Below, piece by piece: positions 47,151 through 61,956 of a stretch of DNA of 64,000 bases. Both the position numbers and the translations under genes were made by a program. The notes beneath the pieces are model-generated. The model ran no database searches. It saw nothing but the letters and a program-made list of their open reading frames with translations, and was not told the origin of the DNA. Origin of the DNA: a virus (taxonomy: Duplodnaviria; Caudoviricetes); IMG/VR virus record IMGVR_UViG_3300031994_000009, one strand, 5' to 3'. Within the stretch, counting starts at the first letter, position 1, and every line of letters begins with the position of its first letter.

Positions 47151-48929
47151 ATGGCAAAGAATAAAGTAAATATCGCAGCTATCCGTGAAGCTTGGGGTCC
47201 TGCCATCAAGACTATCACTAACAACGCTGTTAACGAGTCCAGCGACAAGTTCGACTGGATGTGCGAGTACGCTCATTATCATACCATGGCTCTGAACGAG
47301 GAAGCCATCGGTGGAGCTACATTCCCATTCAATACGCTGTATAACACCAACGGTATCGGTAACGCTCAGCCCGCACAGATGGCTGGCATGACTGGTGTCG
47401 ATCAGGGTTCGGCTGCAGCCAAGGGTTCTGGTGACAAATGGCCTGCATTGCTTCCTATGGCTCTGCAAGTTGCCGCAAGGACTATCGGTTTCGATTTGGT
47501 CAACAACCTGCCTACCCCTGGTCCTACCTACGTGATTCCTTTCTTGGATTACGTTTACAGCGGTTCTAAGGATGCATACGGTGCAACTCCTTCGTACAAT
47601 GGTGCTACTGCCAATCCTAAGATTGGAACTAAGCTCGGTTCGAAGGTTGATCCTGCTTACAGTTTGTATGAGGCCCCTCACGCATTCCGTGCAAAGATGG
47701 TCATCGACGCAAGCAAGGCCGAAGCTGTCCAAGCAATGAAGGATGCTTCTCAAGGTTTTAAGATTGGTGATGGTAGTGTTGAAGCTGGTACTGCAATGAA
47801 TGTCCAGTTCATCGGTTTGAGCCGTCTTTCGGCTGATCCTATGTTCAAGGTCATGGCTGATTCGAAGAATGTTTCTTTGGGTACTGTGTTCACCGCTGAT
47901 GCTTCTATCAGTGTCACTGTTGGTGGTTTCACTTTCTCGTTGCAACGTCCTCGTCTGATCAGCGCCCTTGAGGATCAAGTCCTCGGTTTCACTGGTGCTG
48001 GCAAGTATGACAGCGATCCTTGGAGCGGTACGTTCCAAGATGACATGCACCTCTATGAGCCTATGGATCGTGCAACTGGTGAGATGCAGTATCCTCGCCA
48101 GATGAGCTTGAAGGTGTTCACTAAGTTCGGTCAGGTTGGTACACAAAGTGTTGCCGTCGCCGTCACTCAAGAACAGGTCCAAGACCTGCAGAAGCAGTGG
48201 GGTATCGATGTGCTGAAGCTTGTGGAAAACGCTGGTATCAATGAACTCTCACAGAGCATCAACAAGCACATCTTGAGCCGTCTGTTCGCTCTCGGTTGGA
48301 GGAACCACGTTGAGGCTTACGAGGCTGAAGGTGTGAACCTGAACATCAGCATGACTGGTGTCGCAACAACCAAGACTTGTGTGACTTATTTCGACGATGC
48401 TCAGACTGAAGAGCTGGTCACTATGGACGTTCCCGCAATCACCAACTATGGTAACTTCGAGAACTTCGACACCATCTCCAAGAGGATCGCAGTTAACATG
48501 ATGTATGCTGGTAACATGGTGATGAACCGTGGACGTAGAGGTCCCGCAAACTTCTGCGTGACTAACTACAAGATCGCCACCATCCTGCAGAGCAACGCTC
48601 AGTATTCGTTCGCTCCTATCGCCAACACAATTAACCAGAACAACGGTAGCCTGTATCCTGCTGGTCAAATCAGCGGTCTGACGGTGTACGTCGATCCTTA
48701 CATGCAGGCTTCTGACACGAGAGTGCTGGTTGGTCGTAAGGGTGCCAAGGATGAGCCAGGTGTGTTCTTCTGCCCATATATCATGGCTGAAAGCGTCCGC
48801 CTGATTGCAGAGCAAACCGCAAGCCCGAAGGTTGTCATCAAGAGCCGTTACGCTCTGGTCGACGCAGGTTTCTATCCTGAGTTGAACTATGTGACCTTCT
48901 TCGTGAACACTCCAGATCAACTGGTTTAA
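47151..48929 (+). CDS. gp23: Major capsid protein (T4 gp23-like)
   Basis: TIGFDLV..P..GP, EQVQDL..QWGID, NELSQSINK, RRGPANF, FCPYIM, KSRYAL; strongly biased codon usage. Confidence 0.93.
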   Translation: MAKNKVNIAAIREAWGPAIKTITNNAVNESSDKFDWMCEYAHYHTMALNEEAIGGATFPFNTLYNTNGIGNAQPAQMAGMTGVDQGSAAAKGSGDKWPALLPMALQVAARTIGFDLVNNLPTPGPTYVIPFLDYVYSGSKDAYGATPSYNGATANPKIGTKLGSKVDPAYSLYEAPHAFRAKMVIDASKAEAVQAMKDASQGFKIGDGSVEAGTAMNVQFIGLSRLSADPMFKVMADSKNVSLGTVFTADASISVTVGGFTFSLQRPRLISALEDQVLGFTGAGKYDSDPWSGTFQDDMHLYEPMDRATGEMQYPRQMSLKVFTKFGQVGTQSVAVAVTQEQVQDLQKQWGIDVLKLVENAGINELSQSINKHILSRLFALGWRNHVEAYEAEGVNLNISMTGVATTKTCVTYFDDAQTEELVTMDVPAITNYGNFENFDTISKRIAVNMMYAGNMVMNRGRRGPANFCVTNYKIATILQSNAQYSFAPIANTINQNNGSLYPAGQISGLTVYVDPYMQASDTRVLVGRKGAKDEPGVFFCPYIMAESVRLIAEQTASPKVVIKSRYALVDAGFYPELNYVTFFVNTPDQLV

Positions 48930-48958
48930 TCACTGCGGGTAGCAAGCGATTGACTACG

Positions 48959-48997
48959 GAAGGCCGATTCGATAGAGTCGGTCTTCTTTTTTTTTTG
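48959..48997 (+). terminator. Intrinsic terminator after the capsid gene
   Basis: GAAGGCCGATTC-GATA-GAGTCGGTCTTC followed by a long T-run. Confidence 0.85.
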
Positions 48998-49026
48998 TAT
49001 ATTTTCTTTTTTTGGTTTGGAAATGT

Positions 49027-49039
49027 TCCGTATATTTGC
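49027..49039 (+). promoter_or_regulatory. Host-type promoter TCCGTATATTTGC driving the cas gene
   Basis: Exact motif copy with upstream TTTG; 20 nt before ATG 49059. Confidence 0.8.
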
Positions 49040-49058
49040 AGCACTAAAACTAACCAAT

Positions 49059-51329
49059 ATGGGACATGTACGTTTGCAAAAAAGAGAGGGAGAGGTTTAT
49101 AAGACCTACAAACTTAAAGTAAAGAGCTTTTCTGGCAATGTAGACATTAAAGCTGGTATCGTTGAATACGATCAAAAGTTCAACAACGTGAGCCAATGGA
49201 TCGCAGATCACCTAACTTCGATGACTATCGGGGAAGCGGCAAGCAGGATTAGCCCTCATAAGATGGATTCGCAATATGCAATGACATCTTTGAGCGACGA
49301 GTGGAAAGATCAACCACTTTACAAAATCTTCACGAGAGGTTTCGGTGGAATGAACGCCGACAACCTTATTATCGAATGTACTAAGACGGAAGAGAATTGT
49401 AAATATGACAAAGAGAAGTCACTTGGTTTCTCTGAATCTGTTTTCAGGACTTTTGGTTTTGCCGCAAATGCTTCTTCAGACATGAAATCGAGAATGACCC
49501 AAGCAAAGGTCAAGATTGGAAGAAAGAATATCGATGAGGATTCGGCTGATGACGAAAAATGCCTGCAAGCGATCTATGAGATTCAAAAGAATGAGTTGCT
49601 TACTGACGATAACTGGAAAGATCGTATCGGATATCTTGAGATGAAGGGCGATCAGGAAAGGGAACTCGAAAGAACTACAATCCTTTATGATTATTATAGG
49701 GCCAACAGAACAACAGTGTTGGATAAGTTGGATAATCTTAAAGTCGAAACGTTAAGCAAGTTCCGTGGAAGCAAGAGAAAATCCGACAGAAAGATTTTGA
49801 CTCTCAATGGCATATCGTATGATATAAAGAGAAAGGAAGGTTGCCAAGGGTTTGAACTGAAGTTTTCTGTCGACAAGAACCATATGGAGTTCGATTTGCT
49901 TGGACATCGTGCTTTGATCAAAAACGGAGAGATGCTGGTTGATATAGAGAATTGCCATGGATCTCAGTTATCTTTAGAAATAGATGGAGACGACATGTAT
50001 GCCATTATCTCGATGAGAACGTTCTGTGAAAAGAATGAGTCAAAGCTTGAAAAGATTATCGGTGCAGATGTCAATATTAAGCATATGTTTCTTATGACAT
50101 CAGAAAAGGATGACGGAAACACGAAATGCTATGTCAATCTATATAGAGAGTTGTTGTCCGATAGTGATTTTACAGATGTCCTGAATAAGGAAGAGTATGA
50201 GATTTTCTCCGAACTTTCAAAATATGTAATGTTCGGTTTGATCGAGACTCCGTATCTTGGATCCCGTGTTATAGGAACGACACAACACGAGAAGATCGTC
50301 GAGGATAAGATTACTTCTGGAATGAAGAAGATCGCCATCAGACTGTTCCAAGAGGGGAAGGTTCGCGAAAGAATCTATGTTCAGAATGTGCTGAAGATCC
50401 GTGCCTTGCTGAAAGCTTTGTTCTCTACGAAACTCGCTTACTCGAATGAACAGAAGATCTATGACAATCTGATGAGATTCGGGGAAAAGGATGACAGGAG
50501 AAAGGATGAAGGTTTCCATACAACGTGCCGTGGAACCAGCCTTCGTTCGGAAATGGACATGCTTTCCAAGAAGATCCTTGCGTGTAGGGACAATATCGTG
50601 GAATACGGTTATTATGTGATCGGACTGAACGGGTTCGATGGGATTTCCCTTGAGAACTTGGAGAGTTCAACTTTCATGGATGTTAAGATCAGCTATCCAT
50701 CTTGTAATTCTATGCTGGATCATTTCAAGCTAAAAGGGAAGACAATCGAGGAAGCGGAAAATCACGAAACTGTCGGGAAGTTTATCAAAAAGGGGTATTA
50801 TGTCATGACTCTCGTTAACGGGAAAATCAACGATATAAATTATTCGGAAAAAGCAGTAATGCTTCACAAGAAGAACTTGCTGTACGACACTGTCATCAAG
50901 TCTACACATTTTGCAGATGTGAAGGATAAGTTTGTGGAACTGTCGAATAACGGAAAGGTCAGCGTTGTCATCGTCCCGCCATATTTTTCTTCGCAAATGG
51001 ACAGTGTTACTCATAAAGTGTTTACTGAGGAGATTGTTGTTCAGAAGAAGAGCAGCAACGGAAAAGTCAGAAAAACGAAGAAGACAGTTCTTGTAGACAA
51101 GAGAAAAGTGAGAAAGACACAGGAGTCGCATATCAATGGTCTTAATGCTGACTATAATGCAGCACTCAACCTGAAATATATCGCCGAAACAATTGATTGG
51201 AGAAGTACGCTTTGTTTCAAGACATGGAATACGTATGGTTCTCCTCAATGGGACTCGAAGATCAAGAACCAGAAAACGATGATCGATCGACTGGATTCGT
51301 TGGGTGCAATAGAATTGAAAAACTGGTGA
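49059..51329 (+). CDS. cas12: Compact type V CRISPR effector, Cas-lambda-like (phage Cas12 family), 756 aa
   Basis: RuvC-I IIGADVN (D337), RuvC-II ISLENL (E532), RuvC-III NADYNAA (D698); YKTYKLKVK N-terminus, SDEWKD, HFADVKD, SQMDS motifs recalled from Cas-lambda; array starts 89 nt downstream. Confidence 0.9.
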   Translation: MGHVRLQKREGEVYKTYKLKVKSFSGNVDIKAGIVEYDQKFNNVSQWIADHLTSMTIGEAASRISPHKMDSQYAMTSLSDEWKDQPLYKIFTRGFGGMNADNLIIECTKTEENCKYDKEKSLGFSESVFRTFGFAANASSDMKSRMTQAKVKIGRKNIDEDSADDEKCLQAIYEIQKNELLTDDNWKDRIGYLEMKGDQERELERTTILYDYYRANRTTVLDKLDNLKVETLSKFRGSKRKSDRKILTLNGISYDIKRKEGCQGFELKFSVDKNHMEFDLLGHRALIKNGEMLVDIENCHGSQLSLEIDGDDMYAIISMRTFCEKNESKLEKIIGADVNIKHMFLMTSEKDDGNTKCYVNLYRELLSDSDFTDVLNKEEYEIFSELSKYVMFGLIETPYLGSRVIGTTQHEKIVEDKITSGMKKIAIRLFQEGKVRERIYVQNVLKIRALLKALFSTKLAYSNEQKIYDNLMRFGEKDDRRKDEGFHTTCRGTSLRSEMDMLSKKILACRDNIVEYGYYVIGLNGFDGISLENLESSTFMDVKISYPSCNSMLDHFKLKGKTIEEAENHETVGKFIKKGYYVMTLVNGKINDINYSEKAVMLHKKNLLYDTVIKSTHFADVKDKFVELSNNGKVSVVIVPPYFSSQMDSVTHKVFTEEIVVQKKSSNGKVRKTKKTVLVDKRKVRKTQESHINGLNADYNAALNLKYIAETIDWRSTLCFKTWNTYGSPQWDSKIKNQKTMIDRLDSLGAIELKNW

Positions 51330-51418
51330 TTTTGATCATGGTTTTGAAACAAAATATTGATTTTTCGTTCTTTGACATGCTTGTTAAAAATTGAGTATCA
51401 GTTTAATATAAAGAATAT
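51330..51418 (+). promoter_or_regulatory. CRISPR leader
   Basis: AT-rich 89 nt adjoining the most conserved repeats. Confidence 0.6.
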
Positions 51419-52034
51419 ATTGTTGTAAATGGCTTTTTATGGGCAACGAACAACTCTCGTCCGATTTCCACCGATACCTAAGACATTGTTGTAAATGGCT
51501 TTTTATGGGCAACGAACAACTGTATGACAGTGAAATTGTCGGGCGTAAAAATTGTTGTAAATGGCTTTTTATGGGCAACGAACAACTCAGGGGCAGTGGC
51601 CTCATCGTCATAGAACATTGTTGTAAATGGCTTTTTATGGGCAACGAACAACACGCTTTCAACTGGTGAAAAACTTGCATTAACTGTTGTAAATGGCTTT
51701 TTATGGGCAACGAACAACTCGAATGGCTATGGCTTGGGTGAGTTCGAAACTGTTGTAAATGGCTTTTTATGGGCAACGAACAACTCAACTTCATCTGATA
51801 TGACTTTTACTTCAACTGTTGTAACTGGCTTTTTTGGGGTCATGAACAACGGATCGTTCCCTGTCGATGAACATCCATGCATTGTTGTAAATGGCTTTTT
51901 TGGGGCCGCGAACAACCCTATCATAGGCATCATGTTTATTTATACATTGTTGTAAATGGCTTTTTTAGATCCGCGAACAACCAACAGAATGATGAAGTTT
52001 TGCAAATGTTATTGTTGTAAATGGTTTTTTTTTT

Positions 52035-52528
52035 GGGAATTATATACCTGATGGCACAAAATGAATAATAACAAATTAAAATACAATAAGATGAAGAAGA
52101 TTTTTATTATGTGCTTAATTGCACTTGGAATGATGTTTATCTCTTGCACTAAACAAAGAGATTCTTATTATGTGAAATATGAAGTTGTTGTAAGCAATCC
52201 GCCTTACAATGCTCCTTCAGCACAATTAGAATTGCTTACTGAAAATACTATTGTTACAAAATCAATAGTAGGCTCATTTACAGAAGTTTATGGTCCATAT
52301 AAATACCATGACAGTACATATTTAAAAATAAGTTGTAATCACGGACATTATAGTTGGAATACAGTAAACGCTTATGGGAAAATATATGTTTCAAAAAACG
52401 AAGAGCCATTTGTGTTAAAACAAGAAATTTCAACAAGATTGGGAGGTGATTCAGACCATGATAATTGTGAAATTTCATATATTATTGACTTTTGATTTTA
52501 ATCTTGTGCCAACAAGTATATAATTACC
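52035..52528. mobile_element. Non-autonomous TIR-bounded cassette (IS1595/ISNwi1-like ends) carrying a lipoprotein gene
   Basis: 28-bp TIRs, 24/28 identical (GGGAATTATATACCTGATGGCACAAAAT vs revcomp GGTAATTATATACTTGTTGGCACAAGAT); T10 on both sides; no transposase. Confidence 0.8.
52091..52495 (+). CDS. Lipoprotein (passenger gene)
   Basis: MKKIFIMCLIALGMMFISC signal peptide II/lipobox; 134 aa. Confidence 0.8.
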   Translation: MKKIFIMCLIALGMMFISCTKQRDSYYVKYEVVVSNPPYNAPSAQLELLTENTIVTKSIVGSFTEVYGPYKYHDSTYLKISCNHGHYSWNTVNAYGKIYVSKNEEPFVLKQEISTRLGGDSDHDNCEISYIIDF

Positions 52529-52655
52529 TTTTTTTTTTAGGGCCATGAACAACGGGGCCATGAACAACTATGATTCTTTATCTCGCCATGTGGCGAGAAA
52601 ATTGGCGAGAATTTGATGAGATTCTATAAGATTGATTTTTTTCAAAAATAAAAAA

Positions 52656-52668
52656 TCCGTATATTTGC
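52656..52668 (+). promoter_or_regulatory. Promoter TCCGTATATTTGC
   Basis: Exact motif copy 3 nt before ATG 52672. Confidence 0.8.
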
Positions 52669-52671
52669 ATC

Positions 52672-53106
52672 ATGCAGATCTTTTTACCATACAAATCACC
52701 GATCGACGTTGCCAGAACATTGGATCCTCGTCGTCTTAACAAGCAGATCATAGAATGTCGACAGATTCTTGCAGCCATAGATCAAAAATCCCTTGCATGG
52801 GCACACCATCCAGTTGTTCTCATGTATAGGGAACATCGATCGTTTGTAGAGAACTATATGTACACACTTGAGTGCTATCAGAAGAATGACATATCTACAG
52901 CTGAGTTTTTTAGCACAGTTGCCATAGGATGGATTCCGTGGTTTGTGACGGAGGATTTCATCATCCAGCATAGAAGAAGGCTCTACACGAAAGATAATGG
53001 CTTCTACAAGGATTTTTCTGTGTATGGAGAGAGCGAAGAGAATTGGTATGTCGTGGATGGTAAGCTTATTAAATATAAAAACGGAAAAATACAAAAAGAG
53101 AAATAA
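52672..53106 (+). CDS. Pyrimidine-dimer DNA glycosylase/DenV-like family protein
   Basis: MQIFLPY...LDPRRLNKQIIECRQIL...HHPVVLMY. Confidence 0.75.
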   Translation: MQIFLPYKSPIDVARTLDPRRLNKQIIECRQILAAIDQKSLAWAHHPVVLMYREHRSFVENYMYTLECYQKNDISTAEFFSTVAIGWIPWFVTEDFIIQHRRRLYTKDNGFYKDFSVYGESEENWYVVDGKLIKYKNGKIQKEK

Positions 53107-60963: not shown

Positions 60964-61956
60964 ATGAACATGTATCAATGGGCAGAGAATGAGTGTAGAC
61001 TCGCCTGCGGGAAAGAAAATCCAGATCATAATTTCGATAGTGACGATTTCGATTATGGATGTAGCTGTTACAAGTCAGCATTGAAAGCTTATAAATCTTT
61101 ATTGGATGATGGACATAGCGGTATGTCTTTTAGTTTTACAAAAAGAATACTTGAAAGGCTTATGGATAATCAGCCGCTCACGCCGATAACAGACGATGAT
61201 TTTTTTAGCGTAGAAAGAGGTACAGAAGAGTATCCTATGGAATCTGAGGAATATTTAAAGGAACGTGGATTGAAATCTGATCTTCAATGTCTTAGGATGA
61301 GCAGTCTATTCAGGACAGAAACGATCGATGGCTGCGTTAAGTATCATGACATAGATAGATATTATTATGTTGATGTTGAATGTCCGTCGGATACATATAG
61401 TTCTTCAGCTGATTTTCTTGATGAAATGTTTCCGATTACCATGCCGTATAATCCAGAGGTTGGGAAATACGTCATATATGCACAAACATTTCTAAGTGAT
61501 GTAAACAAAGGTGATTTTGATACTAAGGGAATTCTTTATCTGAAAACTCCAAGTGGAGAAAAAGTTGATGTTGGAATATACATGACAGAAAAAGATGGAA
61601 AAATGGTTCGTATTAATAGGGATGAATATGAAGATTTGTTGAAACATCGTGTTGATAAGTTATACAAGAAAGTTGCTAACCATTTGCTTTGGACGCTTTT
61701 GTCAAATTCGGCATCAGACGAAGAGATCGAACGCCGCGAAAGAGCTTATAACGGACTTTCAACAACAATGAAGCTAGGGTTCGAGGAACATCTTTGTGAA
61801 CTTTGCGAGTTTTTCGAAAACCCAGATCATTGGAAATATAATACATTCAACATTTCTCAAGCTCTTTGCAAAAACGACACAGAATGTTTCAAAGATGTAC
61901 CAGAATTGGTTGAAATTTCAAATTATTTGCAAACGATTTTAAAGGTTATTGAATAA
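60964..61956 (+). CDS. Hypothetical phage protein
   Basis: 330 aa; DGHSGMS and PLTPITD motifs. Confidence 0.7.
   Translation: MNMYQWAENECRLACGKENPDHNFDSDDFDYGCSCYKSALKAYKSLLDDGHSGMSFSFTKRILERLMDNQPLTPITDDDFFSVERGTEEYPMESEEYLKERGLKSDLQCLRMSSLFRTETIDGCVKYHDIDRYYYVDVECPSDTYSSSADFLDEMFPITMPYNPEVGKYVIYAQTFLSDVNKGDFDTKGILYLKTPSGEKVDVGIYMTEKDGKMVRINRDEYEDLLKHRVDKLYKKVANHLLWTLLSNSASDEEIERRERAYNGLSTTMKLGFEEHLCELCEFFENPDHWKYNTFNISQALCKNDTECFKDVPELVEISNYLQTILKVIE

Follow-up and report, generated by a model that had tools for sequence, protein, structure and literature searches.

The DNA analyzed here, a 64,000-nucleotide (nt) stretch of a Caudoviricetes virus (IMG/VR virus record IMGVR_UViG_3300031994_000009; the whole of it is referred to below as the window), very probably carries a minimal phage-borne type V CRISPR interference module of the Cas-lambda family, consisting of one 756-amino acid (aa) effector and its own array, with no adaptation genes, in a 3.5-kb cassette between the major capsid and denV-like genes of a T4-like rumen phage. 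An initial annotation of this DNA had placed such a module at 49027-52568, nearly the same as the borders that we derived independently from sibling phages, and had assigned the effector to the Cas-lambda family, a call now borne out by full-length matches to Cas-lambda1 and Cas-lambda2 and by a family-typical repeat scaffold. By homology, the effector is a divergent member of an already described family rather than a new system, as had also been proposed, with ~40% identity to the characterised enzymes. New here are the borders defined by siblings, the empty and replaced sites, the promoter supplied by the phage backbone, the purifying selection and the exchange of alleles.

The assignment of the effector gene (49059..51329, + strand) draws on matches in the PDB, the RuvC triad and the ratio of non-synonymous to synonymous divergence (dN/dS). 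In a phmmer search of all PDB chains, only two molecules match the effector over its full length, Cas-lambda1 (8dc2_A, E 3.5e-136, residues 10-752) and Cas-lambda2 (9izp_A, E 5e-110, residues 9-753), with the next match at E 0.21. Cas-lambda1 (PDB 8DC2), and with it the family, was reportedly described by Al-Shayeb et al. 2022 (Cell 185:4574). Translation and a family alignment also confirm the intact triad that the initial annotation had reported for a 756-aa open reading frame (ORF): D337 lies in the motif IGADVN, E532 in SLENLE and D698 in NADYNAA, and the corresponding columns of a MAFFT alignment of 40 family members are conserved in 40/40, 40/40 and 39/40 sequences, respectively, in agreement with the single C-terminal RuvC active site with a D/E/D triad of Cas-lambda. 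D337 stands opposite the alanine of 9izm, the D324A dead form of Cas-lambda2, at a position where the wild-type 9izp has Asp.

The family is small. An exhaustive HMMER scan of 1.84 billion cluster representatives returned 59 relatives of the effector, including 46 at E < 1e-30, with lengths that nearly all fall at 730-800 aa, which is in line with the roughly 55 members quoted for Cas-lambda (PMC11641405). Members of the effector's own small lineage were found at 98%, 78% and about 60% identity, and the nearest full-length relatives outside this lineage share 38-39%; the ~40% identity to the characterised enzymes is an estimate from bit scores (458, vs 442 for a relative measured at 38%). Scans of the effector against Pfam, PADLOC and NCBIfam gave no match, including none to TnpB/OrfB, because these libraries contain no Cas-lambda model, and their silence says nothing against the family call. 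Grouping with transposon TnpB, which the initial annotation had named as an outcome that would count against its call, was not seen in the profile searches; only Cas-lambda proteins match at full length. No match was obtained for the 756-aa and 770-aa forms in an exact-sequence look-up of the protein collection, a search for related loci in IMG/VR found no relative, and megablast of the window against GenBank phages gave no match.

The effector gene is followed by an AT-rich leader (51330..51418, + strand) and a CRISPR array (51419..52034, + strand) of repeats 1-9 and the 5' half of repeat 10, with nine spacers; the leader accounts for the 89 nt that had been noted between the cas stop at 51329 and the first 36-nt repeat at 51419. 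No terminator was predicted between the cas gene and the array. The ten 36-nt repeats, whose ends read ATTGTTGTA...AACAAC, start at 51419, 51485, 51551, 51617, 51683, 51749, 51815, 51881, 51946 and 52011, with a period of 66 nt and later 65 nt, seven of the spacers being 30 nt and two 29 nt long. Repeats 1-4 are identical, repeats 5-6 are one base off and repeats 7-9 have several changes in the 3' half, and this combination of near-identical repeats 1-6 with decayed repeats 7-10 is the pattern expected from acquisition at the leader end. Inside repeat 10 lies a 494-bp insertion (52035..52528, + strand) bounded by 31-nt inverted repeats (84% complementary), which encodes only a 144-aa lipoprotein-like ORF (52061-52495) with no Pfam match and an N-terminus that weakly matches a lipoprotein family model. 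Beyond the insertion, at 52529..52568 (+ strand), repeat 10 continues with its 3' half, after which comes one more repeat end of 15 nt; the last AACAAC contains the cassette's right border.

The repeat itself links the array to the effector. The Cas-lambda2 CRISPR RNA (crRNA) has a 36-nt repeat-derived scaffold 5' of the guide, with a 5-bp terminal stem, G(-33):C(-1) to U(-29):A(-5), and a distorted hairpin whose U-rich loop occupies -19 to -15, and it uses no pseudoknot and no trans-activating crRNA (tracrRNA) (PMC12141684). The predicted fold of the + strand repeat has this architecture, with a 5-bp stem from G4:C36 to U8:A32, an inner hairpin and UUUAU at positions 18-22. Moreover, arrays of 36-nt ATTGTTG...ACAAC repeats with 29-30-nt spacers lie directly 3' of three relatives with 38-61% identity to the effector (L013, L014 and L002). 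In an alignment of 21 distinct repeats from the four loci, the outer helix is almost invariant and all five inner-helix pairs show compensatory changes, with both sides altered; paired cells make up 91.9%, shuffles give 78%, with 0/500 as high as observed, and sliding the partners by 1-3 columns leaves 31-67%. On the protein side, Lys8, Arg271, Asn625 and Tyr709 of Cas-lambda2 hold the first stem pair and its neighbours (PMC12141684), and their counterparts here, K20, R284, N631 and Y726, are the family majority residues. The absence of an anti-repeat, which had been claimed earlier, also stands: apart from the array itself, no stretch of the 64-kb window matches the repeat over more than 11-13 nt, and the locus appears in silico to do without a tracrRNA, as Cas-lambda does. 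The match to the solved scaffold, the covariation and the lack of an anti-repeat therefore support the orientation of the array, the pairing of effector and cognate repeat, and tracrRNA independence, as far as these can be read from sequence.

The reverse orientation, with GTTGTT... repeats in the style of Bacteroidota type II-C/VI-B systems, was rejected, there being no such effector and the + strand repeat matching the Cas-lambda2 scaffold position by position. The array of L013 (L013:7335-7950) carries the inner-hairpin variants ACCAT/ATGGT, ACTAT/ATAGT and ATCAT/ATGAT between its own repeats; these are compensatory as well, and such variation within an array is unusual for arrays extended by leader-proximal repeat copying.

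A Pfam scan of the 45 other ORFs of the window returned 24 families, with no Cas1, Cas2 or Cas4, in keeping with what had been claimed for these genes, and no Cas1/2/4 was called in the neighbourhoods of the Cas-lambda relatives. Between the cassette borders nothing fits besides the effector, the array and the lipoprotein gene of the insertion, and the locus is, on its predicted gene content within the 64-kb window, part of a contig of about 181 kb, a minimal one without cas1, cas2 and cas4. A degenerate two-repeat family motif found no array in 185,579 GTDB reference species genomes or in IMG/VR, a two-repeat pattern found no sister array in JGI metagenomes, and an 18-nt core of the repeat gave three single matches only in IMG/VR, probably by chance. 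If the rest of the phage is also without Cas1-Cas2, spacers might enter via a non-cognate host integrase acting on a foreign repeat, or by a Cas1-independent route, and recombination at a hotspot bounded on its right by the repeat end would shuffle arrays and effector alleles between phages; we consider this scenario rather unlikely and offer it as speculation.

The module is, on the evidence of its neighbours, encoded by a phage. Upstream of it lie an S77 prohead protease gene and then a Gp23 major capsid gene (47151-48929; Pfam Gp23, E 1e-35), the capsid gene that the initial annotation had recognised beside the cassette, and other phage genes in the window encode gp32, DnaB, a family B polymerase, NrdD and Tad3. 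We compared sibling contigs, which have capsid proteins of the same 90% cluster and originate from cow-rumen assemblies; one sibling record name carries PRJEB21624, a cow-rumen project. Four siblings (L009, L010, L011 and L012) have an empty site in which 49049/50 is joined straight to 52563-52568, and the denV-like (Pyr_excise) region comes directly after the capsid terminator and promoter box. Homology to these siblings stops at 49049 and resumes at 52563, the left border (49050..49051, unstranded) falling within a short AAC microhomology. The sibling junctions therefore define a cassette of about 49051-52565, 3.5 kb in length, with AAC microhomology at the junction and its right border in the last AACAAC of the array.

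Transcription of the cassette would start from phage sequence. A hairpin and T-run resembling an intrinsic terminator (48958..48997, + strand) follows the capsid gene as part of the backbone and is kept in siblings with and without the cassette. Beyond it, 21 nt before the cas ATG, lies a TATATTTG box of the TAnnTTTG type (49031..49038, + strand), a candidate promoter -7 element; several other ORFs of the window also have this 8-mer ≤60 nt before their starts, and the box at 49031 probably functions as such an element. It is also present in the empty-site siblings L009, L011 and L012, and in L008. The initial annotation had described a host-type promoter of the cassette's own past the capsid terminator; box and terminator are indeed there, but since the box is present in siblings that lack the cassette, the promoter belongs to the phage backbone and the cassette sits behind it. 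The box also bears on the start of the effector gene. Gene callers report longer forms of the cas ORF (768-770 aa), and translation from an in-frame TTG further upstream, at 49017, would yield 770 aa; the ATG at 49059 is favoured over these forms because of the box in the empty sites and the N-terminal alignment to relatives, one of which (P0013) aligns to the effector over 1-752 vs 1-751.

The site is variable among related phages. In L008 it is filled (window 49028-52562) by an unrelated 1.78-kb cargo (L008:11876-13651) with a 544-aa ORF, P0070, which has RuvC-like SIDLN and VEDL motifs and a weak TnpB-related match (TIGR01766, E 0.034). P0070 has > 500 homologues, often several per contig, no adjoining array and no significant similarity to the Cas-lambda effector, and the cargo is probably a TnpB-like mobile element. 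On another contig a 99% identical capsid is accompanied by a Cas-lambda of only 78% identity, evenly along its length and with 270 bp to the next gene, a discrepancy that indicates exchange of the cassette allele by recombination. A more distant phage fragment, L002, retains the order Cas-lambda, short array and Pyr_excise, with a Cas-lambda that is ~58% identical and split into two ORFs and a Pyr_excise that is 56% identical; the order being kept there, the linkage is old and the empty sites, we infer, are more likely losses of the cassette. Two further contigs (L006 and L007; JGI 3300024486 and 3300034645) match the window at 100% identity over 2.7-3.5 kb and stop at 48955-48990, by the capsid terminator and before the cassette, which suggests that polymorphism of the site in the population broke the assemblies there. 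A Cas-lambda relative on a different rumen phage contig (L014:1-774) lies ~4 kb from an IS200/IS605 TnpA-TnpB pair (Y1_Tnp, OrfB_IS605 and Cas12f1-like_TNB).

An independent assembly, L001, has a 98%-identical Cas-lambda in the same protease-capsid-cas order, its contig ending in the first repeat. Compared with L001, the cas gene shows 73.5 synonymous vs 15.5 non-synonymous differences, a dN/dS of 0.047, and the same pair of phages gives 0.053 for the capsid and 0.31 for the protease. Similarly, the leader has 3 differences in 89 nt, while the synonymous divergence of the adjacent gene is 0.18, and it is also alignable with that of L002. Judged by these comparisons, the Cas-lambda gene is under strong purifying selection and the effector is apparently functional. 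Both the dN/dS and the conservation of the leader argue against a relic, that is, a decaying cassette that has lost interference and is leaving the phage lineage. Such decay would agree with the loss or replacement of the cassette in close siblings, the degenerate repeats 7-10 with repeat 10 split by an insertion, the 58%-identical L002 copy in two ORFs and the failure of the spacer searches to return targets. It is very unlikely, however, given a dN/dS that is held at 0.047 over 2.27 kb and equals that of the capsid gene, a catalytic triad and crRNA-stem contacts that are intact, and six leader-proximal repeats that are essentially identical and preceded by a conserved leader.

The scans of spacers against the large collections sought exact matches only, and returned none for the 24-nt 5' parts of spacers 1-5 in IMG/VR, for spacer 1 in JGI metagenomes or for spacer 3 in GTDB species genomes. 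A blastn search of the whole array against GenBank phages gave chance-level matches only (E 0.2 to 8), and all spacers together matched the window and 16 fetched loci, cassette-less siblings included, over ≤16 nt, with no self-match within the window longer than 12-14 nt. The spacers have a G+C content of 42%, a little above the 38% of the phage. As to the protospacer-adjacent motif (PAM), the Cas-lambda2 contacts N89/T113/F118 correspond here to N102/S127/F132, and a T-rich 5' PAM is plausible.

The effector could also be an RNA-guided binder that regulates by silencing host or phage genes, not by cutting, as for some other type V effectors, and the failure of the spacer searches to return a target and the slightly higher G+C of the spacers might be taken in its favour. 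This reading is just as improbable as a relic: the effector keeps an intact RuvC triad, both characterised enzymes of the family cut double-stranded DNA (PMC12141684), self-matches of the spacers in the window do not go beyond 12-14 nt, and the one spacer scanned against reference genomes (spacer 3) has no match there. A transposon-type TnpB nuclease with an omega-RNA-like guide, to which the repeats would be incidental, shares the RuvC fold family and could appeal to the weakly TnpB-like gene at the same site in L008, but its chance is negligible beside the missing Pfam, NCBIfam and PADLOC matches to TnpB/OrfB, the full-length match to Cas-lambda only, the array directly downstream, which is regular with a 66-nt period and has unique spacers and repeats that covary across the family, and the lack of significant similarity between the L008 protein and the effector. 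An accessory nuclease of the TnpB or IS200-IS605 kind was likewise rejected, with no profile match, no transposon ends seen, an array downstream and no TnpA in the window.

Several observations nevertheless weigh against a working interference module as proposed here. Repeats 7-10 are progressively degenerate and the distal array is interrupted by an insertion; repeats 1-6 have a weak inner hairpin (-6.2 kcal/mol, z -1.7); and the promoter motif is not enriched across the window, with 75 matches vs 63 +/- 8 expected. In addition, no collection searched yielded a protospacer, and the searches thus gave no direct evidence for a target or a PAM, while two of the five PAM contacts of Cas-lambda2, Ile237 and Gln239, are not conserved here in our reading of the PDB alignment, and a TTR PAM therefore cannot be assumed.

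A Cas-lambda enzyme is expected to combine crRNA-guided cleavage of double-stranded DNA next to a 5'-TTR PAM with RuvC-dependent processing of pre-crRNA, and homology with Cas-lambda1 and Cas-lambda2 suggests the steps by which the phage module may act. From the backbone promoter box at 49031, a transcript of the + strand, probably a single one, would cover both the cas gene and the array. The effector would bind each 36-nt repeat at two elements, the terminal stem of 5 bp (G4:C36 to U8:A32) and the hairpin that carries the U-rich loop. The site formed by D337, E532 and D698 would then cut double-stranded DNA matching the guide beside a 5' T-rich PAM. The timing of expression, crRNA processing, PAM, DNA cleavage and biological targets are all what we infer for this effector: expression may be early, the role may be directed against competitors or against the host, and the targets would most likely be competing phages or other mobile elements in the same host.

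The system most closely resembles Cas-lambda1, with which the effector shares its length class (756 here vs 747 aa), alignable residues 10-752, the same RuvC motifs and a phage-encoded, crRNA-only locus without adaptation genes, and to which it is only an estimated ~40% identical, with several short indels. Cas-lambda2 (PDB 9IZM and 9IZP-9IZS; PMC12141684) is more distant from the effector and also matches at full length, with a 36-nt repeat that has the same 5-bp stem, U-rich loop and orientation. Cas-lambda2 derives from a cattle microbiome (PMC12141684), and the kind of habitat, cattle gut or rumen, is common to both. While the stem-contacting residues are conserved between the two, the contacts of Cas-lambda2 to the stem-loop and U-rich loop (Tyr409, Gln412, Lys413, Lys416 and Lys436) differ here, and the junction before the stem is GA here vs AA. 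Cas12j (Cas-phi) of huge phages is similarly compact (~750 aa) and crRNA-only, has a single RuvC site that also processes pre-crRNA, and lacks adaptation genes (PMC12141684). The effector shares this compactness, its encoding by a phage, the crRNA-only guide and the absence of adaptation genes, but it does not belong to Cas12j, a PDB search at E up to 10 having returned only Cas-lambda entries and one chance match.

Downstream of the cassette the backbone resumes (52569..53106, + strand) with ~100 nt of conserved non-coding sequence containing a hairpin, a second TATATTTG box at 52660-52667, and the Pyr_excise gene (52672-53106), which is T4 denV-like. The ~90 nt at 52569-52659, non-coding and lying between the two TATATTTG boxes, include the hairpin CTCGCC...GGCGAG and end in a T-run; this stretch is conserved in cassette-bearing, empty-site and alternative-cargo siblings, and may give rise to a small transcript or serve the denV-like gene as a regulatory leader. 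Further along, a 330-aa protein (60964-61956, + strand) matches Pfam Tad3, an inhibitor of type I Thoeris, with its N-terminal 140 residues (E 3.5e-23), and the phage likely has an anti-defence gene besides its CRISPR system.

Taken together, the window extends a family of some 50-60 known members by another Cas-lambda, a divergent and apparently functional one, and with its native repeat and leader known, the effector is a reasonable candidate for compact genome editor and PAM diversity screens. No new kind of system is involved; more useful biologically is the population picture in rumen phages, including selection on the effector and its use of the backbone promoter. In one phage lineage, a single site is either empty or occupied by a Cas-lambda cassette, a diverged allele of Cas-lambda or an unrelated TnpB-like gene, and this provides a natural presence/absence series for asking what a phage gains from a CRISPR system.

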